A stretch of 64,000 nt of DNA from Phycisphaerales bacterium (GTDB lineage Bacteria; Planctomycetota; Phycisphaerae; UBA1845). Where the stretch lies: positions 56,574-120,573 of the forward strand of contig JACKHH010000005.1 in the NCBI GenBank assembly GCA_020639095.1. Direction: 5' to 3'. Numbering within the stretch: the first letter of the stretch is position 1; the number at the start of each line of letters is the position of its first letter. The notes beneath the pieces are model-generated. The model was given only the letters and a program-made list of their open reading frames with translations. It did no database searches and was not told where the DNA came from. The position numbers and the translations under genes were made by a program. Of the stretch, positions 19,917 to 50,620 are shown one piece after another.

Positions 19917-22859
19917 TTAGCGATAGGCTTCGATCATCGCATAGACGATCAGAACGACTAGCGTCAACCCGATCAGCAGGGCGGTGGCCCCGAATATCTT
20001 GATCACCCGCAACGCCAGCGGCGACGGCGGATCGACCATGCGTTTGTCCAACTGGCCGCTCTCGACCATCTGCTGGTATTCCAGCGGGCGTTCGTGCTTC
20101 AACTCCGCCAGTGGCATTCTGCCGGTGAAGATCACCGTGTCCATCGGGAACTTCTCCGGACGCAGATTCGCGTTGAAGAAGTGGATGGTGAAGATGAATC
20201 CCGTCGCGAGCAGCGCCTCGTCGCTGTGGATGATCGTCGCGACGTTGATCAGCCAACCCGGCAGCACGTACGTGAACACCTCGGGGAACCAGAGGAACAC
20301 ACCGGTTGACCCGATGATCGCGATACCCCAGAACACCGCGAAGTAGTCGAACTTTTCCCAATAGGTCCAGCGGCCGTAATCGGGTTTGGGACCTCGGCCG
20401 ATGAACCACTTCATCGTCGCGAAGAACTCGCCAATGTCGCTGAATCGCGGCACGATCGACTCAGGACCGAAGATAAACGACCAGAGCGTCTTACCGCTTT
20501 CGATGTAGCGCTTGCGCAGGTCCCAGAGGTGGAAGACGAACAGCGTGAACATCGCCACCGCGCAGGTGCGGTGAATGAAACCAGCCGACTCGAACCCGCC
20601 CAACGCACGCGAGAGCGCCACCGCCCAACGCGTATAGCTGAACTTGAGCATCATGCCGGTAATCGCGAGCCCAAAGAAGCTCAGGATCATCACCAGGTGC
20701 ATGATCCGCACCTTGGGGACGAAGCGCATGTACTGCTTTGTCGTGGTGATGGTCAGTGCAGCCTCGGCTTGGCGAAGTTCCTTCCGCATGCGCCACGACC
20801 GTGGCAACCAAATCAGCGTGTGCAGCCCGAAGAATCCAAACGTGCCCACCAGCAGCGTCGTCATGCCCCAGAAGGCGTAGTACAACGCGGGGTACTTCTT
20901 CGGATCGTGATGCGTGGCGTGTGTCAGGTACCCCGCGAACTGGCGATGTGCGCCCGGGTGACATTGGGCGCAGGTCGCGACGATGTTGTCATGACTCAGC
21001 CGCGACTTGGGATCGGTCACGCGCAGGATGTCGTGCGCGCCGTGGCAGTCCTGGCACTTCGCGGTCTCGGCTTCCCCGAGCAGCGACACCTTGCCGTGAT
21101 ACGTGTCGTTGAAGTACGACTCGGTCAATTCCTGGTGACACTTGCCACACTGATCCATGATCGACAGCTTGAAATCGTTCTCGTCGGTGCGCGAGATCGA
21201 GTGCGGCGAATGGCAATCATTGCAACGCGGCAGGGCAGACATGCCCTGAAGCTGCGTATACTCCGGGTTGCCCGTCGGCGAGTGTACGCTGGTCGAGTAC
21301 TTGTCGTAGATGCCGTGGTGACACTCACCGCAAGTGGCTGCGATGTGGTCGGGGTTCACGCTGGCGGCTGGGTCGCTCGCGGGCAGCGCGCGGTGCGCGG
21401 TGTGGCAGCTCGTGCACGTCGCGGTCACGGTGAGCCCGCTCTCGAGCAGACCCTTGCCGTGGATGCTCATCGTGTAGTTCTGGACGATGTTGTGCTGTTC
21501 TCCGAGGTAGCGGACGGCGGCTTTTCCGCCTTCGCGGTGACACTTTCCGCAAAGCGTGGGCACGTTGATCGCGAAGGTTGGCGATTCGCGTACTTTGGCT
21601 TGCAGGATGGTCGGCGCGTCGTCTTTGATGCTGTGCTCAAGAATGCCGTGCGTTCCGTGGCAATCGGCACAGGCGGGTGCGTTGGGATCACCCTTCGCGT
21701 GCAGCGTGCCGTGAACGCTCATCTCATAGTCTGATACCGCAGCTTCATGGCAAATGGCGCAATCGACCTTCTGTTCGAGCGAGGCACAGGGACGCGTCGG
21801 GTCCGACGGATCGACACCCGTGTGACACTGCGCACACGCAACAACCTTTCGCCCGTGAATCGACTCCGCGTACTCTTCCGGATTCACGAACAGCGATTTG
21901 CCATCGGCGGTCGCGACAAGTTCCGGATCGCGGTGGCAGTGCAGACAGTCCGCATTCGCAAGACCGGTGTCATACGATGCTTTGCGGGCTTCGTGTGGTG
22001 AGTGGCACTCGACGCAGTTGGGAATCTTGTTCGGTTCCTTCTCCCACATCGAGCCGCGAATGATCTTGCGGTGTACGTTCTCAATGATGCCGTGACACTT
22101 CATGCACGTCGCGGTTACGTTCTCCTTCGAGATCGACGACTTGGGATCGTCGTGCGGGAGCACGTGGTGGCCCGTGTGACAACTGGTGCAGACCGCCGTC
22201 ACCACGAGCCCCTGTTTGAACAAGCCCTCGCCGTGGATGCTCTGCGTGTAGCGTTTGAGAATCTGATCCTGCGGAATGTCGTACGCACGCTCGACCGGTG
22301 CGCCTTCCGCGTGGCACTGTGCGCACATCTGCGGGACGTTGAACGGGGCGACGGCTGACTTCGGATCGGACAGCGGGACGATGTAGTGGTTGCCGTGGCA
22401 ATCCTGGCAGCGCGGCGCGAGCGGGTCTTCTTCCTCAAGACGCTGGCCGTGAATGCTCTCCGCGAACTCCTCTGCCGCTTCGTCGTGACACATCGTGCAA
22501 TCGACGCGCGCGAGATCGAACTTGTGCGGTAGCTCGGTGTCTTCGAGATCCTCGTGGCAGGTCACGCAGTCGAGGTCGGCGTGTACCGACTTGTTGAACT
22601 GCTCGAGGTCAACGAACAGCGAAACCTGACGATCCCCGCGCGTGCCCACGAGATTGCGGTCGCGCCCGTGACATTCCAGGCAGAACGCGTTGTCCTGGGC
22701 GAAGGCTGAGTTCGTCGATGCAGTCAGCGCGACGACTACGGCAGCACACGCCAATTGACACGGGGTAAGTCGAAAAGCAGGGATCCGCATGGGCATCTCT
22801 TGCGCTGGTCGTGGTTGATACGTGCAACAGTACGGGCGAACGCGGCCCGGCGGTTGCAC
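19917..22859 (-). CDS. CbcL-like fusion protein: N-terminal 19-heme c-type cytochrome domain plus C-terminal diheme cytochrome b (HydC/FdnI-like) membrane domain
   Basis: Signal peptide. Nineteen CxxCH sites counted by eye. The C-terminal roughly 330 aa carry 5-6 TM helices with conserved His residues, as in cytochrome b subunits of formate dehydrogenase and hydrogenase. Overall architecture matches Geobacter CbcL, but with many more hemes. Confidence 0.75.
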   Translation of the reverse strand: MQPPGRVRPYCCTYQPRPAQEMPMRIPAFRLTPCQLACAAVVVALTASTNSAFAQDNAFCLECHGRDRNLVGTRGDRQVSLFVDLEQFNKSVHADLDCVTCHEDLEDTELPHKFDLARVDCTMCHDEAAEEFAESIHGQRLEEEDPLAPRCQDCHGNHYIVPLSDPKSAVAPFNVPQMCAQCHAEGAPVERAYDIPQDQILKRYTQSIHGEGLFKQGLVVTAVCTSCHTGHHVLPHDDPKSSISKENVTATCMKCHGIIENVHRKIIRGSMWEKEPNKIPNCVECHSPHEARKASYDTGLANADCLHCHRDPELVATADGKSLFVNPEEYAESIHGRKVVACAQCHTGVDPSDPTRPCASLEQKVDCAICHEAAVSDYEMSVHGTLHAKGDPNAPACADCHGTHGILEHSIKDDAPTILQAKVRESPTFAINVPTLCGKCHREGGKAAVRYLGEQHNIVQNYTMSIHGKGLLESGLTVTATCTSCHTAHRALPASDPAASVNPDHIAATCGECHHGIYDKYSTSVHSPTGNPEYTQLQGMSALPRCNDCHSPHSISRTDENDFKLSIMDQCGKCHQELTESYFNDTYHGKVSLLGEAETAKCQDCHGAHDILRVTDPKSRLSHDNIVATCAQCHPGAHRQFAGYLTHATHHDPKKYPALYYAFWGMTTLLVGTFGFFGLHTLIWLPRSWRMRKELRQAEAALTITTTKQYMRFVPKVRIMHLVMILSFFGLAITGMMLKFSYTRWAVALSRALGGFESAGFIHRTCAVAMFTLFVFHLWDLRKRYIESGKTLWSFIFGPESIVPRFSDIGEFFATMKWFIGRGPKPDYGRWTYWEKFDYFAVFWGIAIIGSTGVFLWFPEVFTYVLPGWLINVATIIHSDEALLATGFIFTIHFFNANLRPEKFPMDTVIFTGRMPLAELKHERPLEYQQMVESGQLDKRMVDPPSPLALRVIKIFGATALLIGLTLVVLIVYAMIEAYR

Positions 22860-22930
22860 CGGCCCGGTATCGTTGACGAATCCGCGCGATTTCGCAACCG
22901 CTAAATCACCGCCGGCGGCCCGTTCGCCGA

Positions 22931-24940
22931 CTAGTGCTCGTGCTCCTCTTCGTCGTGGCTTCCGAGCGCGTTGTCTTCAACTTCCTCTTCCAGACGCGGT
23001 CGAAACTTTCGGCCCTTGAGTCGCGGCCCATCGGGATGCTCGTGGTCGTACATCACCTTCGACATGCGCCCCGCAAGCCACGCGGTATTCATCGGGTAAA
23101 CCGTCGGTTTGAAGACGGTGTGGTAAACGTGCCAGACGAGAATCGCCAGCGTCGCGAGCCACGCTTCGTAGTAGTGAATCACGAGCATGACGTCGAGGAA
23201 GCCTTTCGGCAGGCCCAGGCGGTTGGCGAGATAGTCAAACCAGAGAAAGATGCCGGTGCCCGTCATGATGATTGTACCCCAGACGAGCGCCCAGTATTCC
23301 GCCTTCTCCATGTAGCTGAAACGCTTGTACTTCGGCTCTTCCGCGCGGAGGCCGAGGAAGTACAGCGAGTTTTGCCAAACGTGGGTGAAGTCGGACATCG
23401 CCAGCACCATGTCGCGCACCCAATGACGCCCGCGGTGCGTGAACATGTAGAACAGGTGCCAGATCGACGTCGCCGTCATCACCACGGCGGCTCCACGATG
23501 AATATCACCGCGAATCTCGAATCCGCCTTCCCAACCAAAGATCAGCCGGGACCACCACGATTCCGAGAAGCGCAACGAGAAGCCGGTGATTACCAGTACG
23601 ATGAACGACACCATCAGCGCCCAGTGCTGCATCACTTCGTTCATGCTCAGGCGCTGCACGTGGGGGAGTTTCTTCGCGTCGCGCACCTTGCGGAACCAGT
23701 CGCCGATGTTGTGCAGCAACATCAAGCCGATCGTGGCCACGATGAGTACGATGTACAGCTTGCGGAAGAACTCCGCCCAACCAGTGTGCAGACCGGCACC
23801 GGTTTCGTGAATCTTCGTCTGAGCAAGGTCCTCGGTGATGCCCGGGTGACACTTGCCGCAGGTGTGCCGCAGGTTCGACGCGTTAATCGATGACGTCGGG
23901 TCGGTGGAAGGCAGGATGCGGTGCGCGCCGTGGCACGACGAACAGTTCGCCACTTTGAGGTCACCGGCTTTGCTCTTCAAACCGTGATAGCTGTCGATGT
24001 ACGACGCCAAGCGCCCGCCCGGCAAGCCGAATTTCTCATTGAGCACCGCCGATTCGTGGCAGGGGGCGCAGGTCTGCTCAGCAACGTGCGTGGGGCTGAC
24101 TGGCGAATTGGGATCGTCCGGCGGAATGATGCCATGCTCGCCGTGACAGGTGGTACACACCGGGGCAGCCATTTCGCCGCGTGCGACGAACTGCCCGTGG
24201 ATGCCTTCCCAAAAATCCCGCGATATCGGCTTGTGACATTTGCCGCAGGTGTCGGGAATGTTGAAGTGATACGTCGTCGATTCGGGGTCGCGCGGCGAGA
24301 GGATACGGTGCGCACTGGGCGCGCCGTCCGGGCCGGGCGATGAGTGGCAATCGTTGCACGTCGCGGAAAGGTAGATGCCTTTCTCCGTCGTGGCTTGGCC
24401 GTGTACGCTGCTTTCGTACATCTCGACCGGGCCGGCGCGCAGCACCTCGTGCTTGGCCAGCATGTTCAGGTTCGTATGGCACTTCAGGCACGTCTTCGGC
24501 AGGTTCACCGGGTGTACGCGCGAACGCTGATCCGCCACCGGCAGAATGTCGTGGTGACCGTGGCAATCCCAGCATTCGGGGATGTCGGGGTCGGTGTGAA
24601 CTTCGAGGCGACCGTGCTTCTTGTAGACCTCGGATTCGTCTTCGTGGCACTCCGCGCAGCCAATCAACTGAATGTCGCCGTGCGGGTGTTCGGATTCGAG
24701 GTTGACGTTGTCGGCGTCGATGTCACCGTGGCAGTCGTCGCATGACAGGTCGGAGTGAATCGACTTCGCGAGCAATTCCGCCGGCGGGCCGATCTCACGC
24801 GAAACCGCCTGGCTGTGGCACTTCGCGCAGCCTTCCAACTCCTGCTCCGGCTCGGCGAAAACCGGAGCGGCGAGGATGAGGGTCAGGATGATGGCTGGGG
24901 GAATCCATCGCGGGGAATGACGCAACTTCAAAAGGCTCAT
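22931..24940 (-). CDS. CbcL-like fusion protein: 11-heme c-type cytochrome domain plus C-terminal cytochrome b membrane domain
   Basis: Signal MSLLKLRHSPRWIPPAIILTLILAAPVFA. Eleven CxxCH sites. The C-terminal TM-rich domain is paralogous to that of the 19917-22859 protein. Acidic His-rich C-terminal tail (HDEEEHEH). Confidence 0.75.
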   Translation of the reverse strand: MSLLKLRHSPRWIPPAIILTLILAAPVFAEPEQELEGCAKCHSQAVSREIGPPAELLAKSIHSDLSCDDCHGDIDADNVNLESEHPHGDIQLIGCAECHEDESEVYKKHGRLEVHTDPDIPECWDCHGHHDILPVADQRSRVHPVNLPKTCLKCHTNLNMLAKHEVLRAGPVEMYESSVHGQATTEKGIYLSATCNDCHSSPGPDGAPSAHRILSPRDPESTTYHFNIPDTCGKCHKPISRDFWEGIHGQFVARGEMAAPVCTTCHGEHGIIPPDDPNSPVSPTHVAEQTCAPCHESAVLNEKFGLPGGRLASYIDSYHGLKSKAGDLKVANCSSCHGAHRILPSTDPTSSINASNLRHTCGKCHPGITEDLAQTKIHETGAGLHTGWAEFFRKLYIVLIVATIGLMLLHNIGDWFRKVRDAKKLPHVQRLSMNEVMQHWALMVSFIVLVITGFSLRFSESWWSRLIFGWEGGFEIRGDIHRGAAVVMTATSIWHLFYMFTHRGRHWVRDMVLAMSDFTHVWQNSLYFLGLRAEEPKYKRFSYMEKAEYWALVWGTIIMTGTGIFLWFDYLANRLGLPKGFLDVMLVIHYYEAWLATLAILVWHVYHTVFKPTVYPMNTAWLAGRMSKVMYDHEHPDGPRLKGRKFRPRLEEEVEDNALGSHDEEEHEH

Positions 24941-28054: not shown

Positions 28055-29743
28055 CTATCCGAACCGCCGCGCCGCGAGAAACGTCCGCGCACGCTCGACT
28101 GAGTATAAGCGGTCGCCTTCCTGCAAGCTGTCGATGCGCACTTCCGGTGGGCCGCTGTGCATGAAATGCGTAGGGGTAATTGCTACACCGACGTGGTAGA
28201 TTCGCCCACAGTTGTTGATGAAGTAGAGCAGGTCGCCGGGTGCGATCGCGTCGGGATTCCACCGCGTCGCCACCAGTCTGCCGCTAAGGAATTGCTGGCC
28301 CGCGTCACGCGGCAGAGCGAGCCCGCTGCGCAAGCTCGACTTCTGCGCGAGCCCGCTACAGTCCAGACCGATCGGTGATACCCCGCCATAAATGTATGGA
28401 ACGTGCAGCAATTCCAGGGCGGCAGAGATGCGTGCTTCGCCGTTGCGCGACGCATCCTGAATACGCACGTCCCGCGCGCCGACTTCGAGCGGGTCGTCGT
28501 GGGGATGCGTCAGGAGCATGCGCGCATCCGCTTCGCGCGCGATGGGCAGAACGGCTCCTCGTGGAATCCGCCTGCCCCCCAGATCGATATCACGCTGTAG
28601 TACCGCCCTTCGCGTCGCGGTGTAGGGCGCAAAGTCGGCTGCGGTGAGTATTCGCAAACGCTCCTCGCGCACCCAGCCCCAGTAGCCGTCGTCGCCGTGA
28701 ACGAGCAGGAACCCGTCTTTGTGATCGAGCAGGAGGACGGGTTCGCCATAGAGCAGTTGCGAACGCAGGCCAGCCGATTCGGACGGCGCGGCGTAGGTGA
28801 GCGCCATGCTTGCCAAGCATACGGCGAACCGCTCGCCGTTGAGTGCGCCGTCCTCCGGCAGCAGTCGAAGCTCGTTGATGACATTCTCGATGCCCACGCA
28901 GCGCAGCGCGTCGGCGAATGTGTCACGCAGCAGTGCGACGTTGGTTGCGCCGGCAATACGGACGGTGTCGCCTTCAACGGTGACATTAGGTTGGCAGTAA
29001 ACGAACGTGCGATCGGAAAACACCGTGCGGACAAAGGTGTCGCAGAACCACGCGGCGTATTCGATCGGCAGCTTGCCGTGCGGCCAGACACGCTCAGCCG
29101 TTTCCTGCATTTCCTGTTCCGGCGTGCGATCGACGAAACGCGGCACGGGTGTTGCGCTGGGGGAGGCGTGCGGCGTTGCGGCAGCCTGTTTCTGCACAAA
29201 GGCAATCATGCCGCGACAAACCGCCTCCGCGACCTTCTGCGGGATGAGACGTGTTTTTACTTCGCAAGCTTCCGCAGCCGTTGCGGTGATGGCGATACCG
29301 GTGGGCGCGGAGTTAGCTCGCAAGGATACATCGGGTAGGGCGTCAATCGTGTGGAATGCGTCGACGATCGCGGATTCGAGCGGCGACGATTGCGTGCTTC
29401 CGATTCGTGCTTGGACGGTGCACGTGAATTGTGTGTTGTCGGATGGCTCGGATTGGGAAAAGGTAATATCGACGACGACATCATTGCTTTCCGCTCCCTT
29501 ACAGTCGCGGCTCGGATTGTCGTCCGCGCGTGTCATGATGGGGATGCCGCCCGCTTGTTGCGTGAAGTGAAAGAGCACGCCCGCGGTCATGAGCGAAAGG
29601 TCATCAAGTCGCCGTTGCGCCGCGTCATGTGCTCCGCCGCCATTTGCGTCGATCACCACGACTTGTCCGCGCAGCGCATCCGCCTGCGGTCGCCAGGGCC
29701 GCACGTAGGTTTCGATCACGCGTTGAACGTTTTTCGTATCCAT
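28055..29743 (-). CDS. NlpC/P60-family cell-wall peptidase with a long N-terminal extension (possible amidase-like and SH3-like segments)
   Basis: C-terminal NlpC/P60 catalytic signature (LDCSGL...GDLLYF...HVGVAI). Likely starts are ATG 29743 (MDTKN) or 29800 (MPRAV). The 5' part of the track ORF (to 29941) lies in a structured non-coding region. Contains one copy of the 35-nt repeat at 29483-29517. The N-terminal VVVIDANGGG segment is only weakly amidase-3-like. Confidence 0.6.
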   Translation of the reverse strand: MDTKNVQRVIETYVRPWRPQADALRGQVVVIDANGGGAHDAAQRRLDDLSLMTAGVLFHFTQQAGGIPIMTRADDNPSRDCKGAESNDVVVDITFSQSEPSDNTQFTCTVQARIGSTQSSPLESAIVDAFHTIDALPDVSLRANSAPTGIAITATAAEACEVKTRLIPQKVAEAVCRGMIAFVQKQAAATPHASPSATPVPRFVDRTPEQEMQETAERVWPHGKLPIEYAAWFCDTFVRTVFSDRTFVYCQPNVTVEGDTVRIAGATNVALLRDTFADALRCVGIENVINELRLLPEDGALNGERFAVCLASMALTYAAPSESAGLRSQLLYGEPVLLLDHKDGFLLVHGDDGYWGWVREERLRILTAADFAPYTATRRAVLQRDIDLGGRRIPRGAVLPIAREADARMLLTHPHDDPLEVGARDVRIQDASRNGEARISAALELLHVPYIYGGVSPIGLDCSGLAQKSSLRSGLALPRDAGQQFLSGRLVATRWNPDAIAPGDLLYFINNCGRIYHVGVAITPTHFMHSGPPEVRIDSLQEGDRLYSVERARTFLAARRFG

Positions 29744-30569
29744 CTTGCCTACTTCTTTGTGAGACACTTGATCCTCATGCGCAACAACTGCGCGGGGCAT
29801 GATACCGCGCCGCGCGAGCGTCGCCCAACAGGCGGTATCGGCGTGCCAGCCCGCGTCATCGCGCGTTGCGAATCGCCGTATTTTCAGGGGACAAATGTGA
29901 TTTATACTTGACACCTTCCTGCGTTGAGGTATATTTCCCAAACACGTCGCGTTGGGCGGCGTGCATGTGTAGTGGAGGTTGCCATAGTGGCTACCCGTCA
30001 GCTCGACATTTTCAAAAGCAGCCGGCGAAACGAATGGCTCGCGCTATCGCTGATAAGCGGTGGGCTCATGCCGTTGGATTCCGCGTGCGGAATCACGTTC
30101 GCCCATGACGGGCCTCCCGGGTAGTGTGCAATTGTTTTTTGCCCATCCACCCCGGAGGCGCTTGCGACAGCGGCCTGCGGGGTTTTTTGTTGCGCATGTC
30201 TTTCCGCGTAACCCCTGACGGTCTCTTCGGTTAGCGATCGTATTGAACCGGTTGCAGTTGGTACGCGTGTCGATTGCCGGGGCTGTTGTGTCCCGATGCG
30301 ATGCGCGGACGGAGAAGGTGCGCGCATGTGTGCCACTGCTCTTGAGCAGTGGGACATGTCACAGAGCGTCGCTGCGTATCGCGTCCACTGCTCAAGAGCT
30401 GTGGCACAGGGTACGTCTCGCTCGCATGGAGAAAAGTCAATCCGCGCACGCGTTGCGCGGCGGCCTGAAGGATATGTCGGTTGTCGTACCGGCGGTGTGC
30501 GTGGGCATCGTTCGCTCGATTTGCTCGCGTACGTTCCGCGTGACGGGGTCTGAAGCGACAACGTAGCAT

Positions 30570-30645
30570 GTGTGAGAAGCTCAATGGTCGAGCAACACGA
30601 CTTAGGATCGTGCTGGTGCGGGTTCGAATCCCGCCTCAAACACCA
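30570..30645 (+). tRNA. tRNA-like gene (76 nt, encoded CCA). Anticodon loop reads UAG (Leu), but the variable loop is short like a class-I tRNA and there is a G3:A70 mismatch. Possible pseudo-tRNA or tRNA-derived attachment site
   Basis: Manual cloverleaf: acceptor GTGTGAG/CTCAAAC with one mismatch, D-stem GCTC/GAGC, anticodon stem CACGA/TCGTG with loop CTTAGGA, 5-nt variable loop, T-arm GCGGG-TTCGAAT-CCCGC, discriminator A, CCA. Confidence 0.45.
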
Positions 30646-31439
30646 ACCCGGAGTCGTCCCCCCGCCCCGCTCAGTCAACCGGCTGGTCGAGGCGGGGGGA
30701 TGACTCGCCCGGCGAATAGCCGGGACGGCGTAAGCCGCTACCGAGCCTTGGCGGGGAGAGTGCTTCGTCGCGTCGCCGGTTGTCCCGATCGCACCGTATG
30801 GGCTGCATCATCAGCCCGTGCGCCACGACGGGCGACACCGTCGAAGCGGTTCGAGCGAACGCGGATACCGCCGAGTCAAATCGCCAATCGTGCGATCTCG
30901 CGTCAGACGGAAAGCAGACGCGAGTTCGCACGAACGGCGGTCACTGACCCGGCTTAAGCGTTCGCCCACCGCGTTCCGCGGGGCGATGCGAGAGAAGGCT
31001 CTCCTCGTCGGGCAGCGGCGGCGAACGCGTTGAGCGACATGACACTGAATCGGGAAAGCAGAATAGGGATTTACGAAATAGCAGGATGGCAAACTCCTCC
31101 CCCTCTGGGGGAGGGCAGGGTGGGGGTAGTCAGCGAAAGTGTTCTTGAGTCAAAGACTCCTCCGCCGACTCAGAAACTGCATCGGTTCACGCGAAGTCGT
31201 CGCGCTTTGCAACGGCTTCGCTTGATGCCCTCCCCTTGCCCCTCCCGGAGGGCGGGGAGTTGGACCGTCCTGGCTATGTGGGGAAAGACCAATCCTGGTC
31301 GCGAATGCAGGCAGGATGCCTGCACCACAATACAGAACCCCGGGCGTCTAGTCCGGGGCGGAACAAACAGTGACGTCTCGACGTCGGGACGCACATGAGT
31401 TTGCATGAGCCCACGCGCTCGAGAAAGGAGGTTATATCC

Positions 31440-32561
31440 ATGTTGGGTTTGATTCGTATTCGTAAGCACGAGCGCGGTCTGCGGTTCCGTCACGGGGACT
31501 TTGTCGGCTTGCTGTTGCCGGGCCAGTACCGTCTGTGGAACCGCGCGCGCAACGCGATTGAGGTGTACAACACGCTCAATACGCGGTTCAAACACGATCT
31601 GCTCGACGTGTTGCTTGAGGATCGTGAGGTGCGCGCCGCGCTCACCATCGTGGACCTCAGCGACAATCAGCGTGCATTGCTCTGGAAGGATGACCGCCTC
31701 GCGGAAATCCTCGGGCCGGGGCGTCACGCCTTCTGGCGTACGCCGTACACGCTGACCGTTGAGACGTTCGAGGTTGATGCGTTCGGGCTCGAACACCCAC
31801 GGCTCGAAGCCATCTTGAGCCACCCGGGTGGGTCGCAGTGGTTGCAGGGCATCGACGTGGACGCACACGAAGAGGTGCTGCTCTACCGTGACGGCAAGCT
31901 CATCAAGCGTCTCGGCCAGGGGCGTTACGTCTACTGGAAGGGCGCCGGGCGTGTGACCTGGAAGGCGATCGATCTGCGCGAGCAACTCGCGGATGTCGCC
32001 GGTCAGGAAATCATGACCCGTGACAAGGTCACGCTGCGTGTGAACCTGCTCGTGGCCTACACGGTCGTCGACGTCGAGAAGGCGGTGTCGGTGGTGGCTG
32101 ACCACGCGCAGGCGCTGTACCGCGAGGCACAGTTGGCACTGCGTGCCGCGATCGGTACGCGCACGCTCGACGCGTTGCTCACGGACAAGGAGTCCGTTGG
32201 GAATGAGGTTGCGAATGTCCTGGCGAAGCGTTCAGCCGACTTCGGGGTGAGCGTCCGCAGCATCGGTCTGCGTGACATCATCCTGCCGGGTGAGATGAAG
32301 CTGATTCTCAACCAGGTAATCGAAGCCGAGAAGCAGGCCCAGGCGAACCTGATCCGTCGTCGTGAGGAAACGGCAGCCGCGCGTAGCCAGGCGAACACCG
32401 CCAAGCTGCTTGCGGAGAACCCGGTTCTCGCGCGGATGAAGGAGCTGGAGTCGCTGGCGGAGATTTTGGCCGGCACGAAGGCGACGTTCGTCCTCGGTTC
32501 GGGCGACCTGACCGATCAGGTCCGCAGCCTGGTGACGTCAGCCGTCCAGCAGCAGGCTTGA
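31440..32561 (+). CDS. SPFH/band-7 (stomatin/prohibitin-like) domain protein
   Basis: Strong ribosome-binding site AAAGGAGG then ATG 31440. Band-7 core with a coiled-coil C-terminus ([25 protein letters not shown]). The track start at 31395 is an upstream extension. Confidence 0.75.
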
Positions 32562-33348: not shown

Positions 33349-34443
33349 ATGGCCCAATCCGTCGATGAGAAACTGCTCAACAAACTCGCGGAGATCGCGG
33401 ATCGCCGCGCTTCGCTCGAAGCGCAGATGGCTGATCCCGAGATCGCCAGCGATCACAACAAAGCCATCGCACTCGCCAAGGAACTCGGCAAGCTGAAGTT
33501 CCTCACCGATCCGTACCGCGAGCTGCGCAAGACGCAAAAGAGCCTGGAAGAGGCGCGCGAACTCATGCACGACTCTGCCGGCGATCCCGACCTGCGCGAA
33601 CTCGCGGAAGCGGAGCTGCCCGATCTCGAAGAACGCTACGAGGAGCAGCTCGAAGCGCTCAAGGAACGCGTGGTGACGGCCGATGATGCCGCGATCGGCG
33701 CGGTCATGCTCGAAGTGCGCGCCGGGACCGGAGGCGATGAAGCCGGTCTCTTCGCCCGCGATCTCTACGAAATGTACCTGCGCTACTGCCAGCGCATGGG
33801 ATACAAAGTCGAGGTGCTCGATCAGTCGAGTGGCGAACTCGGCGGGCTCAAAGAAGTCATCATGACGATCCGGGGCGAAGGCGCGTGGCGTTCGCTGGGC
33901 TACGAAGGCGGCGGCCACCGCGTGCAACGCGTGCCCGAGACCGAAGCCCAGGGTCGCATCCACACCAGTGCAGCCACCGTTGCGGTCTATCCCGAGCCCG
34001 AGGAAGTCAACATCGACATCAACTGGGATGCCGACGTCGAGGAGCACGTCGCGCGGGCCAGCGGTCCGGGTGGGCAGAAGGTCAACAAAACATCGTCCGC
34101 GATCAAGCTGGTACACACCGAAACCGGTATCACCGTGAGTATCCAGGACGAAAAATCCCAGCACAAGAACCGCGCCAAAGCGCGGCGCATCCTCACGGGT
34201 CGCGTGTTCGATCATTACCAACGGCAGCAGACGGCAGCCGTCGACAGCGCCCGCAAGACGATGATCGGCAGCGGCGACCGTTCGCAGCGCATCCGCACGT
34301 ATAACTTCCCGCAGAACCGCTGCACCGATCACCGCATCGGCGTGACGCTCTACAGCCTCGATAAGATCATGCAGGGCGAACTCGACGAAATGATCGCGGC
34401 GCTGCAAACCTTCGACAAAGAGCAGCGCTTGAAAAACCTGTAG
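33349..34443 (+). CDS. prfA: Peptide chain release factor 1
   Basis: GGQ motif (SGPGGQKVNKT) and RF1-type codon-recognition loop (QRVPETEAQGRIHTSAATVAV, with PET in the PxT position). Confidence 0.85.
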   Translation: MAQSVDEKLLNKLAEIADRRASLEAQMADPEIASDHNKAIALAKELGKLKFLTDPYRELRKTQKSLEEARELMHDSAGDPDLRELAEAELPDLEERYEEQLEALKERVVTADDAAIGAVMLEVRAGTGGDEAGLFARDLYEMYLRYCQRMGYKVEVLDQSSGELGGLKEVIMTIRGEGAWRSLGYEGGGHRVQRVPETEAQGRIHTSAATVAVYPEPEEVNIDINWDADVEEHVARASGPGGQKVNKTSSAIKLVHTETGITVSIQDEKSQHKNRAKARRILTGRVFDHYQRQQTAAVDSARKTMIGSGDRSQRIRTYNFPQNRCTDHRIGVTLYSLDKIMQGELDEMIAALQTFDKEQRLKNL

Positions 34444-42818: not shown

Positions 42819-42997
42819 TCCGCGGGGATTATAAGAGGACACCTGCATATCCTCAACGCGATGCTGGGACGGCTGGTGGGAGAGCGCCAAGTGTGCCACT
42901 GCTCTTGAGCAGTGGAGTCGATGGCGAGTGGGCCGCACAGATCATGACCACTGCTCAAGAGCAGTGGCACGCGGAAGCATGATCACTGGAACTGCGA

Positions 42998-48126: not shown

Positions 48127-48503
48127 GGCAGGTGTGAGGCTTGTTGGTTAGGCTTGAGGCTTGAGACCTGAGGCTTGAGGAGAAGGGTACGCGTCACCGC
48201 GGGTGGACTGACAAGCTCTGCTTGTCAGTGGGACGTAGAACGAGTGGCGTCAATCGTAGAGTCCATGGACAAGCAAAGCTTGTCCATGCCACCCGACCAA
48301 TACAAATGCGCAATGAGAAGAGAATCAGAACCCCGGGCGCCAAGCCCGGAGCAAATAGCAGGAAATCTCAAGGCAACAAGAAGACGCGCCGACCGCCATC
48401 CCTACAAGCCTCAAGCCTCAAGCCTCAAGCCTCAAGCCTCAAGCCTCAAGCCTCAAGCCTCAAGCCTCAAGCCTCAAGCTTCAAGCCTCAGACCTCAAGC
48501 CTC
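48127..48503. repeat. Complex structured repeat, copy 1: inverted blocks of a 9-nt tandem repeat flanking a roughly 225-nt palindromic core
   Basis: Left block GAGGCTTGA-type units at 48127-48178. Core with palindromes CTGACAAGCTCTGCTTGTCAG (48208-48228) and CCATGGACAAGC-AAA-GCTTGTCCATG (48263-48288), plus the CCCCGGGCGCCAAGCCCGG hairpin. Right block of about 11 units of GCCTCAAGC at 48405-48503, the reverse complement of the left block. Confidence 0.8.
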
Positions 48504-48942
48504 GCCCCCCCCGGCGACGCAGTGTCACCACCGCAAGCACAACGCCCGCCCCCAGCGCATCCGCCACGAAGTCCTCAATGTCGCGATGCCTGCCCGACAG
48601 CGGTTGCAGTATCTCCGTCAGCGCGCCAAAGGCCGCGAAGATCGCCCACCAGCGCAGCGCCCACGCGCGCGTACACGTCTCACCCGCCGACCGCCGCGCG
48701 AGCGCGCCCAAGTACGCAAGGATCGCAAACGTCGTAAAGTGAACAACCAGGCCCTTTTTCGAAATGACAATCGGTGGACGCGGCACCTTCGGCGAGAGCA
48801 GCAATCCCGTCAGCGTGACCCAGTACACCGCCCACGCCGCGACGATCAGGCGATGCCAGCGAATCAACAACGGCTGGTGACCAACATCGGGCGAGTCAGT
48901 CACGCCGCGCTCCGCTCGTGGCTGGTTCTTCCTCGTAGACAA
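48481..48942 (-). CDS. VanZ-like family membrane protein
   Basis: Four TM helices and the VanZ-like pattern (LTEILQPLSGRHRDIEDFVADALG). The C-terminal codons run into the 9-mer tandem repeat. Overlaps the parA-like gene's 3' end. Confidence 0.5.
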   Translation of the reverse strand: MSTRKNQPRAERGVTDSPDVGHQPLLIRWHRLIVAAWAVYWVTLTGLLLSPKVPRPPIVISKKGLVVHFTTFAILAYLGALARRSAGETCTRAWALRWWAIFAAFGALTEILQPLSGRHRDIEDFVADALGAGVVLAVVTLRRRGGRGLRSEA

Positions 48943-50149: not shown

Positions 50150-50351
50150 CGGTCATCCCTTACCGATTCGGGGCAGGATTTCCCAGCAGCCGGAGGGTGT
50201 CCGTAATCGAATCGACCGTCGCCGGAGATTTCGCCCAAGCTGCCTATTCTGCGAGGATCATATCGCACGCAGGCGACGAGGTGAAGGAGGAATTCGCAAG
50301 CAAGGTGCGGGGTTGTGAGTTTTGATGGTAAGACGTGCCGTGAAGGCGTGA

Positions 50352-50620
50352 GGCTTGAGACCCGAGGCTTGAGAAGTAAGAGACGCGCTGTCGCGGGCGG
50401 CACTGACAAGCTCTGCTTGTCAGTGGGGCGAAGAACGAGTGGCGTCATGTGTTGAGTCCATGGACAAGCAAAGCGCGTCCATGCCACCCGAGCTATTCGA
50501 CTATTGCGTTGGGAGGAGAATCAGAACCCCGGGCGCCAAGCCCGGGGCAATTGGCACGAAACCTCAAGGCGAAGTGAAGACGCACTGACCACAACCTACA
50601 AGCCTCAAGCCTACAACGTC
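50352..50620. repeat. Complex structured repeat, copy 2 (shorter paralogue of 48127-48503)
   Basis: Shares GTGAGGCTTGAGAC...GAGGCTTGAG, CTGACAAGCTCTGCTTGTCAG (50403-50423), GAACGAGTGGCGTCA, TCCATGGACAAGCAAAGC, GAATCAGAACCCCGGGCGCCAAGCCCGGGG, and the terminal CAAGCCTCAAGCCTACAA with copy 1. Confidence 0.8.

Follow-up and report, generated by a model that had tools for sequence, protein, structure and literature searches.

A tRNA-Shaped Domain in a Conserved Structured RNA Upstream of Slipin/SPFH Genes: A Probable Multi-Part Leader

In a 64,000-nt stretch of a Phycisphaerales genome (contig JACKHH010000005.1 of GenBank assembly GCA_020639095.1, positions 56,574 to 120,573; hereafter the window), the interval between an NlpC/P60-SH3 gene (ATG at 29743, minus strand) and a slipin/SPFH gene (ATG at 31440) holds a conserved structured RNA of at least 530 nt, made up of a 5′ domain (5′D), a complete tRNA-shaped domain (X), and a domain closed by a long-range helix (the P0 domain). 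The anatomy of this RNA is conserved among loci from several phyla, and its helices covary. On balance we consider it probable that the interval is the multi-part 5′ leader of the slipin gene, within a translation-stress module that is linked to tRNA arrays and RtcB. Such a leader would run, 5′ to 3′, from a sigma-70-type promoter through a leader open reading frame (ORF), a terminator, 5′D, X, and the P0 domain to the slipin ribosome-binding site (RBS), with repetitive extragenic palindrome (REP)-like repeats between some of these parts (Table 1). The host is a member of the Phycisphaerae, and the best named homologues of its slipin are from Phycisphaerae and from metagenome-assembled genomes (MAGs) of Planctomycetota. 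Every feature listed in an initial annotation of this interval, which was read from the letters without database searches, is present at or near the place given for it. One of the proposals made there, a structured RNA using a tRNA mimic, is supported by our results, and the conserved RNA is larger than had been proposed.

Conservation of the tRNA-Shaped Domain

ARAGORN calls a tRNA-Leu(tag) at 30570–30645 on the plus strand, the sole tRNA found in the 64 kb, and the Rfam tRNA model (RF00005) matches X with all four arms present (53.3 bits, where the gathering score is 29; E = 1.3e-08). Both results bear out the 76-nt cloverleaf with a class-I variable loop and a G3·A70 mismatch that the initial annotation had described; that annotation had also allowed for a cloverleaf scoring below the detection threshold, and the score lies well above it. 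As a leucine tRNA, X is irregular in several respects. Its variable loop has 5 nt (CUGGU) and is thus class I, not the class II of bacterial tRNA-Leu. With A8 for U8, C21 for A21, a base inserted between positions 26 and 27, and G3·A70, it departs both from the universal U8/A21 tRNA core and from an intact 7-bp acceptor stem. Nor do the orthologous slots in other genomes keep the anticodon (CAU, UGA, GUU, GAU, GAG, and others are found). At the 3′ end, A73 precedes a CCA that is encoded. By folding energy, X on its own does not stand out (z = −0.98), and a family covariance model (R1) scores the window copy at 65.8 bits. Two further ideas were dropped: an alanine identity signaled by the 3:70 irregularity, as mismatches are spread over positions 1–4 and are not specific to 3:70, and a promoter of the sigma-54 or extracytoplasmic function (ECF) type directly 5′ of X, where the conserved flank is the structured 5′D.

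Loci for comparison were gathered in two sets. The first comprised DNA around slipin homologues at 72–82% identity, and the wider set, for which one genome per species was scanned, added 80 loci with slipin identities of 43–68%. X was located with ARAGORN together with R1, which was built from 50 copies; the family statistics given below refer to 50 aligned sequences and to 71 parsed copies. Each of the close loci (slipin 72–82%) has a gene-free gap of 1.2–1.7 kb 5′ of slipin that holds a class-I tRNA-like gene, with the anticodon called as CAU, UGA, or GUU, or with an odd GAAG loop. Genes farther upstream are unrelated between these loci, and the flanks of the tRNA-like element can be aligned. 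Overall, of the 78 loci with 450 nt or more of sequence upstream, about 74 have X on the same strand as slipin and 300–800 nt 5′ of it, and slipin identity among them spans 43–99%. They represent Planctomycetota and Acidobacteriota, the isolate Sulfidibacter corallicola being one of them, together with single loci labeled delta proteobacterium, Alcaligenaceae, Rhodobacterales, and Omnitrophota.

The stems of X are kept to very different degrees. Pairing amounts to 97.5% in the D stem, whose sequence is nearly invariant, to 100% in the T stem, and to 95.9% in the anticodon stem, with covariation in all five pairs of the latter. Pairing in the acceptor stem declines toward its outer end, from 96% at 5:68 to 7:66, through 84% at 4:69 and 72% at 3:70, to 50% at 2:71 and 44% at 1:72. 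For the whole of X, 90.8% of cells are paired, vs. 67.1% after shuffling (0/500) and 28–43% with slid partners, and 270 cells are compensatory. The anticodon loop has 7 nt in 60 of the 71 parsed copies (the other 11 loops have 5, 6, 8, or 9 nt), and these 60 loops contain 22 different triplets in nearly random distribution; among close relatives, different triplets occur on identical anticodon stems. Entropy reaches 1.88, 1.49, and 1.91 bits at positions 34, 35, and 36, compared with 0.13, 0, and 0 bits at the tertiary-contact positions U8, A9, and G46. Ten of the 60 loops have triplets with A34 (AAG, AUG, AAC), a base that to our knowledge is confined in bacteria to tRNA-Arg(ACG). U33 is kept in 43 of the 60 and absent from 17, and six have a pyrimidine at position 37. 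CCA occurs at or near the 3′ end of 35 of 71 copies; the genuine tRNAs of Planctomycete arrays lack an encoded CCA. Two abutting copies of X are present in nine or ten loci, and in four others (L035, L048, L055, L063) the anticodon arm is lost and only T-arm-like hairpins remain.

What is selected in X is its three-dimensional tRNA core, and not the anticodon or the acceptor end. Serine and leucine anticodons on class-I bodies, that of the window included, fit selection on the core but not on the anticodon. Free anticodon triplets, A34 triplets, odd loop lengths, broken outer acceptor pairs, and the defects of the window copy together argue that X is not a decoder. It is probably a tRNA-derived structural domain rather than a decoding tRNA-Leu, selected for its elbow (D/T loops, U8, A9, G46) and its anticodon stem. 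The term pseudo-tRNA, offered in the initial annotation, is apt insofar as X probably decodes nothing, but the element is not decaying: it is under purifying selection, and each of the three variable stems shows compensatory changes.

Structured Domains Flanking X

Across the family, 5′D has a flank helix around CCGGCGGCGC, a variable hairpin, and the motif GYGUUCCGYGA-ACGGGUUCU. A covariance model of this domain (R2) matches the window at 51.5 bits (E = 1e-8). Run over 658 kb on both strands, R2 gave 68 matches, one per locus and none elsewhere, all of them on the plus strand just 5′ of X, or of its first copy where two stand in tandem; about 30 of the 68 loci were outside the set used to build the model. 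RNAalifold predicts 13 pairs in 5′D, 10 of them with compensatory changes, including CCG/CGG to CCA/UGG in eight sequences.

On the 3′ side of X, two linker hairpins lead to the P0 domain. The initial annotation had called the first one, given as 30652–30700, terminator-like. A hairpin is indeed present (30651–30706), but we rejected it as a terminator, since it is not followed by a U run and shows no conservation of sequence. At this site, the closest relatives (L001, L002, L004) have a different hairpin, GAGCCG-GGGAUA-CGGCUC.

The P0 domain of the window is exceptionally stable, with a minimum free energy (MFE) of −163.6 kcal/mol vs. −117.8 ± 5.0 kcal/mol for shuffled sequences (z = −9.2, 0/200). 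Within it, an invariant internal loop (GGAUACC/UCAA) lies between helices P1 and P2, followed by a variable insert of 60–170 nt. Among 32 sequences from loci pre-selected by pairing score, with the register afterwards fixed by a sequence motif, 87.1% of P1 and P2 cells are paired, vs. 56.6% after shuffling (0/500) and 27–43% with slid partners, and 15 of the 16 pairs show compensatory changes. A strict scan with fixed register found P1/P2 in 31 of 79 loci, in 0 of 79 reverse complements, and in 0 of 79 coding-region controls. The long-range P0 helix that closes the domain also changes in a compensatory manner (for example, GCAAGUUGUGGG with CCCUGCAACUUGC in L008, and GCGGAUUGCGGG with CCCUGCAGUCCGC in L010), and its duplex energy is better between a locus's own strands than between strands of different loci (−53.1 vs. 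−44.8 kcal/mol; none of 5000 permutations was as good). In L077 and L081, the P0 3′ strand doubles as the 5′ half of a hairpin with U6 after it, similar to a riboswitch expression platform. Most likely, the P0 domain would be a riboswitch-like control element, possibly acting through a ligand, whose closing helix would compete with a terminator in some lineages.

A Leader ORF and Probable Attenuator

The initial annotation reported no convincing protein-coding ORF in the interval. This holds for long ORFs, but a conserved leader ORF of 45 codons (29987–30124; hereafter uORF, for upstream ORF) had been overlooked. Upstream of it, a putative promoter agrees with the consensus at 11 of 12 positions (shuffles of the region would yield 0.4 sites this good), and TTGACA with a TATAnT-like hexamer recurs at the aligned position in L002 and L004; the TTGACA-16-TATATT element may be used as a promoter.

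Several relatives have ORFs of 40–48 codons at the same place that end in Pro-Pro-Gly-stop, or PPG-stop (L001, L002, L004, L006, L024, L028, L032, L060). In L011, this ending is found on a longer frame with no clear Shine-Dalgarno (SD) sequence; an SD was detected in 6 of 10 PPG-stop loci. The ending is conserved as peptide: the third base of the Gly codon varies (GGG/GGT/GGA), and the Acidobacteriota keep a terminal AVCRPPG through synonymous changes (GTC/GTG/GTT, TGC/TGT), followed by TAG or TAA. Elsewhere the last residues before the stop are PPSG, PPN, PPR, PPGA, or a single final P. UAG, a stop codon specific to release factor 1 (RF1), ends 13 of 17 uORFs, which are not independent of one another, vs. 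TAG in 20% of 30 long ORFs of the window. No enrichment of uORFs in codons read by the anticodon of the local X was found (1.25 own vs. 0.93 cross codons, n = 8).

The terminator-like hairpin reported at 30150–30195 proved to be a real intrinsic terminator, with two arms and then T6, and it is conserved in relatives. The Pro-Pro-Gly codons themselves (GCCUCCCGGG) are complementary to its 5′ arm, CCCCGGAGGC (30150–30159). L010 retains this complementarity between uORF end and terminator by way of changed sequence (CCUUCAGGG vs. CCCUGAAGG), and L012 retains most of it. The block as a whole is about 80% identical over L001, L002, and L004, and the U run has 6–8 residues (U6–U8) among the attenuator loci. 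The locus has the parts of a leader-peptide attenuator: a short ORF in the right position, a stall motif conserved at the peptide level, and a terminator with an alternative pairing that involves the ORF. In the MFE structure of 30100–30200, the uORF end is paired with the terminator 5′ arm (the anti-terminator), and when a ribosome footprint is masked, the terminator forms.

PPG is a stall motif that depends on elongation factor P (EF-P). EF-P-dependent coupling has been described (PMC5021804). A ribosome parked at PPG-stop would hide the anti-terminator strand, so that transcription would end at 30188. If translation were impaired, ribosomes would remain short of the uORF end, which could then pair with the terminator 5′ arm and allow RNA polymerase to continue.

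Table 1. Features of the leader interval and the slipin gene, in window coordinates.
Feature	Position	Strand	Description
Sigma-70-type promoter (putative)	29908–29935	+	TTGACA-16 nt-TATATT; predicted start near 29943
uORF	29974–30124	+	SD GGAGG 29974–29978; GTG 29987; 45 codons, ending His-Asp-Gly-Pro-Pro-Gly; TAG 30122–30124
Attenuator	30112–30188	+	Candidate anti-terminator strand GCCUCCCGGG at 30112–30121, formed by the Pro-Pro-Gly codons
Terminator	5′ arm 30150–30161; 3′ arm 30170–30182; U6 30183–30188	+	Intrinsic
REP-like palindrome pair	~30325–30408		24-nt arms, each itself palindromic, 96% complementary; between attenuator and conserved RNA
5′D	30478–30569	+	Helix UUGUCG 30481–30486 with CGACAA 30556–30561, enclosing CCGGCGG, variable hairpin, and GUUCCGCG-GACGGGGUCU
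X, tRNA-shaped domain	30570–30645	+	Class-I cloverleaf; loop CUUAGGA; G3·A70, A8, C21, A73, CCA
Linker hairpins (two), X to P0 domain	30651–30706 and 30708–30724	+	First with 24-nt arms, 83% complementary
P0 domain	30750–31009	+	~260 nt; P0 5′ strand 30750–30766 pairs with 30992–31009
P0 domain, inner parts	H0 30837–30850; H3 30966–30983	+	Hairpins
P0 domain, P1	30855–30862 with 30958–30965	+	Covarying helix
P0 domain, P2	30870–30877 with 30946–30953	+	Covarying helix
P0 domain, internal loop	GGAUACC 30863–30869 opposite UUAA 30954–30957	+	UCAA in family
Palindromic insertion	31060–31400		Lineage-specific, between P0 domain and slipin RBS; long hairpin, z = −6.5, 0/100 shuffles as good
Slipin/SPFH gene	31424–32561	+	SD AAAGGAGG 31424–31431; ATG 31440; 373 aa

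The Slipin Gene and Its Neighborhood

The only Pfam domain in the slipin protein is Band_7 (96 bits), which places it in the SPFH/stomatin family. In its AlphaFold 2 model (pLDDT 83), three beta repeats at the N terminus are joined by the SPFH domain and a long helix; the repeats can also be detected in the sequence (z = 5–11). The maximum Kyte-Doolittle value over 19 residues is 1.45, so that no membrane segment is predicted and the typical N-terminal anchor of the family is lacking. Stomatin tops both fold searches, and HflK/C and prohibitin are also among the best matches. Major vault protein (MVP) gives the longest alignments to the model, at lower scores than stomatin and HflK; a preprint on bacterial MVP homologues deals with other, longer proteins. 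PADLOC, applied to the slipin protein, returned no anti-phage defense family.

The neighbors in the window with Pfam matches are NlpC/P60, a Gate-domain transporter, and RF1, in addition to slipin itself. On the 3′ side of slipin are rpmE (ribosomal protein L31; 32938–33228) and prfA (RF1, with PET motif; 33349–34443), the latter 0.8 kb away, and the same two genes follow in L001. L31 was read from the ORF translation in the window and is matched by PF01197 in L001.

In at least 12 loci, slipin lies inside a same-strand array of 9–18 tRNA genes, with a conserved order such as Lys-Lys-Thr-Arg-Asn-Trp-X-slipin-Gly-Cys; the window lineage retains X and slipin without the array. RtcB (Pfam, 221.6 bits) is encoded within 3.5 kb in 10 or 11 loci, inside the arrays or just 3′ of slipin (L018 at 1054–2283, L016, L027, L036, L067, L034, L039, L040, L051, and L072), and RtcA is found 3′ of slipin in L006 and L007. 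Degenerate tRNA clusters have been reported in Planctomycetes (PMC4807772). In Anabaena, translational stress co-induces a long tRNA array and rtcB, and it has been suggested that array tRNAs act as sponges for toxin RNases (PMC8421152).

Some loci are of interest for their genomic setting. The cultured S. corallicola M133 (NZ_CP071793.1; L065) has 5′D, X with a GAA anticodon and CCA, and slipin, and its P1/P2 motif has diverged. Three MAGs each contain a paralogous pair of whole modules with a tRNA array at each copy (L024/L026, L028/L064, and L036/L067). An uncultivated virus genome in IMG/VR (94 kb; L088) combines a tRNA array, 5′D, X (72.8 bits), and slipin on a contig classed as viral, which may represent a mobile module or a misclassified contig.

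Inserted Repeats

The palindrome pair noted initially at 30333–30407 was found again at about 30325–30408, with 24-nt arms that are 96% complementary. It is a dispersed repeat, with a second window copy at 42888–42970; no homologue was found in any fetched locus, and the pair lies outside the stretch aligned with relatives. The G/C-rich palindromes noted between 31090 and 31322 are likewise real and form part of the long hairpin region at 31060–31400. This stretch is missing in relatives, and L001, L006, L008, and L009 carry other repeats at that spot; repeats seem to insert preferentially into the DNA that separates the P0 domain from the RBS. In L001 (~2080–2330), four tandem copies of CGCTCCCTTACAGTCGCGGCTCGGTTTTGTTC stand where the window has the palindromic insertion.

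The repeat hairpin first given as 31325–31358 is located at 31333–31359 in the slipin leader. This hairpin (CAGAACCCCGGGCG.C.AG.CCGGGGC) has further copies at 48326 and 50522, contained in direct repeats of about 440 nt that are 2.2 kb apart (48150–48590 and 50344–50590). Elsewhere in the window, the heptamer CAAGCCT is present in about 17 tandem copies at 48391–48523, and 21000–24600 contains coding repeats of about 59–96 nt with recurring GTGGCA/TGCAC motifs, which may encode repeated CxxCH heme-binding units of multiheme cytochromes.

Comparison With Known Systems

At the gathering threshold, Rfam identified only tRNA in the window and four related loci. E-value scans with Rfam 15 over the window interval and L010 gave no match to the GOLLD, ROOL, Y RNA, or tmRNA models; the weak matches (Hammerhead_II on the minus strand, E = 0.15; miRNA precursors; anti-hemB) are far below thresholds. 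We found no equivalent in the literature searched, which covered tRNA-like elements with slipin, SPFH, or stomatin genes, tRNA arrays with SPFH genes, and riboswitch candidates.

Several known systems share part of the arrangement. In the thrU-tyrU-glyT-thrT-tufB operon of Escherichia coli, tRNAs are co-transcribed with an mRNA, and RNase P cleaves operon mRNAs. Our loci resemble it in having a same-strand tRNA-shaped element 5′ of a gene, often in a tRNA operon, the release of which would set the mRNA 5′ end; however, the tRNAs of that operon are true decoders with fixed anticodons, whereas X has a free anticodon and a frayed acceptor stem and lies between conserved RNA domains. T-box leaders are similar in their length, their tRNA theme, and their anti-terminator/terminator logic, and GGAUACC loosely recalls the T-box bulge UGGNACC. 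A T-box binds tRNA in trans via a specifier codon, whereas X is part of the leader in cis. The T-box model of Rfam had no match at E up to 5 in the window and up to 1 in L010. A T-box-like pairing in cis between the X anticodon loop and the leader was also considered and rejected (4.70 nt for own vs. 4.66 nt for cross pairings, p = 0.38).

Attenuators and arrest peptides that contain proline include mgtL/mgtP, tnaC, SecM, and the RAPP peptides ApdA and ApdP. As in these, a short leader ORF precedes an intrinsic terminator here, the stall is proline-rich, and the end of the peptide is conserved. They differ from the present case in that the stall motif here is the last three codons plus UAG, which are themselves the anti-terminator strand, and in that the regulated unit is a structured RNA with an SPFH gene rather than a transporter, a secretion factor, or a biosynthetic operon. 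The rsr-yrlA-rtcBA locus of Salmonella encodes the Y-RNA-like YrlA, which has a tRNA-like domain. It shares with our loci a non-coding RNA (ncRNA) that mimics the tRNA elbow, next to RNA-repair genes and a gene for a ring- or cage-forming protein; unlike there, no Ro60/TROVE gene was seen, X is a full four-arm cloverleaf, and no Rfam Y-RNA model matches. GOLLD and ROOL are large RNAs that often adjoin tRNA genes, and they too are highly structured and bacterial, but they have another architecture, their Rfam models do not match, and the RNA described here is strictly linked to one protein family. Finally, the long arrays of Anabaena (PMC8421152) and the Planctomycetes clusters (PMC4807772) are same-strand arrays of 10–18 tRNAs, some degenerate. 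In Anabaena, RtcB is likewise a neighbor or co-regulated, and impaired translation is the proposed trigger; regulation there, however, is via direct repeats in the promoter, and the window keeps only the tRNA-like slot and no array. That study mentions neither "stomatin" nor "tRNA-like" (PMC8421152).

Evaluation of the Proposed Leader and of Alternatives

If the interval is a leader as proposed, X needs a role in it. We suggest, tentatively and as the likeliest of several possibilities, that X is a tRNA mimic recognized by factors that handle tRNAs (for example RNase P, RNase Z, or some other protein that binds the elbow). Cleavage at X would cut or mark a long precursor and so set the 5′ end of the P0-slipin mRNA.

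A number of observations weigh against the leader as we propose it or against this role for X. Co-transcription of the attenuator, X, the P0 domain, and slipin is suggested solely by shared strand, spacing, and the lack of intervening terminators. The uORF attenuator occurs in only about 17–20 loci, and with the U run included, 9 of 10 loci have the terminator as their MFE structure even in folds without a ribosome. The thermodynamics are thus ambiguous, and because the terminator is favored in those nine loci, the switch would have to be kinetic. The strict P1/P2 motif, found in 31 of 79 loci, is not universal, and the P1/P2 pair counts come from pre-selected loci. RNase P, which reads the acceptor and T-arm helix, fits poorly as the partner of X, since conservation within X is lowest at the acceptor end and strong in the anticodon stem. 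Some copies of X resemble normal tRNAs; the first copy in L058 has seven acceptor pairs, A73, and CCA. A73 together with A35 is common (35 of 60), and the valine, isoleucine, methionine, and phenylalanine synthetases read the anticodon, so that some copies could be charged according to it. That 35 of 71 copies encode CCA may point to a free 3′ end. Most of the loci, moreover, are MAG contigs.

The last of these points about X are also the ground for a decoding role, in which X would be a supernumerary "wildcard" tRNA of the array with an anticodon that shifts by lineage, here a class-I tRNA reading CUA and CUG. Valine, isoleucine, methionine, phenylalanine, and leucine tRNAs carry A73, and A35 in 35 of the 60 loops would fit shifts among these anticodons. 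Added to this are the good cloverleaf score, A73 with an encoded CCA, the largely kept Y32, U33, R37, and A38, tandem copies that differ solely at position 34, the existence of fully canonical copies, and the real tRNA arrays adjoining. We nevertheless consider a decoder improbable. The ten loops with A34 have triplets otherwise unused in bacteria, 11 loops are not of 7 nt, U33 is missing in 17 of 60 and a pyrimidine stands at 37 in six, about half of the sequences have broken outer acceptor pairs, and serine or leucine anticodons sit on class-I bodies. The window copy is itself one of these, and it also has A8, C21, an insertion, and G3·A70. The constant position of X between two conserved RNA domains would be of no need to an ordinary tRNA gene. 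In another proposal, X would be a decoy or sensor for anticodon nucleases or other tRNA-damaging enzymes, cleavage of its loop reporting or absorbing the attack and RtcB resealing it. The canonical shape of the anticodon loop with its fast-changing triplet, the nearby RtcB, RtcA, and tRNA arrays, and the precedent of operonic tRNAs proposed as toxin-RNase sponges (PMC8421152) are in its favor. These are matters of context; no nuclease gene was identified, PADLOC was negative for the slipin protein, the variation of the triplet could equally well be neutral drift or an arms race, and L035, L048, L055, and L063 kept the T arm but lost the anticodon arm. We rate a decoy as very improbable. A dead pseudo-tRNA left by a lost array, with hairpins due to chance in G+C-rich intergenic DNA, would account for the absence of the array in the window lineage, the several defects of the window copy, its ordinary folding energy (z = −0.98), and the parts of the interval that truly are repeats or insertions. 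It is hard to reconcile with an X kept in about 74 of 78 loci over phyla with compensatory changes in every variable stem, with specific conserved domains on both sides, or with the P0 domain (z = −9.2). An integration site, with X as the attB remnant of a mobile element, was another idea of the initial annotation. Transfer RNA genes are common integration targets, repeats are nearby, and one homologous locus is on the IMG/VR contig, but X is flanked on either side by conserved RNA whose order is constant over phyla, the neighbors include no integrase, and in a search of the 64 kb for a duplicated tRNA 3′ half, the 25-nt half occurs once. Both are close to excluded, the pseudogene having very little in its favor and the integration site the least of any explanation considered here.

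Two further explanations turn on the protein. The 5′D-X-P0 RNA and the soluble, repeat-bearing SPFH protein could together form a bacterial ribonucleoprotein (RNP) that deals with tRNA damage or translation stress. X would then be a tRNA surrogate (a cargo, a scaffold, or an anticodon-nuclease sensor or decoy resealed by RtcB), and failure of ribosomes on the PPG-stop leader would be required for expression of the complex. Taken jointly, these three suppositions seem to us unlikely to hold. It is rather more doubtful that the RNA has no cis-regulatory role at all and is a stable ncRNA partner of slipin, the cargo or scaffold of a soluble SPFH cage like a vault. The linkage of RNA and gene is tight; slipin lacks a predicted membrane segment and combines three beta repeats at the N terminus with an SPFH domain and a long helix; and the unit is apparently not disrupted in the window, where inserted repeats place 430 nt between the P0 domain and the RBS. 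Yet stomatin and HflK are much closer than vault protein by Z and E value, Pfam gives Band_7 alone, in most loci no terminator separates the P0 domain from the gene, and the overlap of the P0 helix with a terminator in L077 and L081 is the behavior of a cis switch. A multi-part leader of the slipin gene thus remains the explanation that we favor.

Implications

The ingredients of this leader (a tRNA mimic, a structured leader, and an arrest-type attenuator) are each known in kind, but neither their combination nor the fixation within a leader of a full tRNA fold whose anticodon is free appears to have been described. With at least 68 loci in several phyla and strong covariation, the RNA is a candidate for a new RNA class. 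In it, a complete tRNA fold has been recruited inside a leader of more than 500 nt, and its drifting anticodon and fixed core amount to a natural experiment on which parts of a tRNA count when it does not decode. There is also a warning for annotation, as pipelines will label X as tRNA-Leu, -Ser, -Met, -His, and so on, which distorts and inflates tRNA gene sets.

The module connects a soluble stomatin-type protein with vault-like repeats, tRNA arrays, RtcB, and a Pro-Pro-Gly-stop leader peptide, which had not previously been connected. Should the RNP explanation be true, the complex would be a prokaryotic counterpart of vault-type or Ro/Y-RNA-type particles in which the tRNA fold is put to a new use. 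The proposed leader offers a functional lead for an uncharacterized SPFH subfamily, and a testable model of the response to translation stress in the Planctomycetota and Acidobacteriota, phyla in which such regulation has been little studied.

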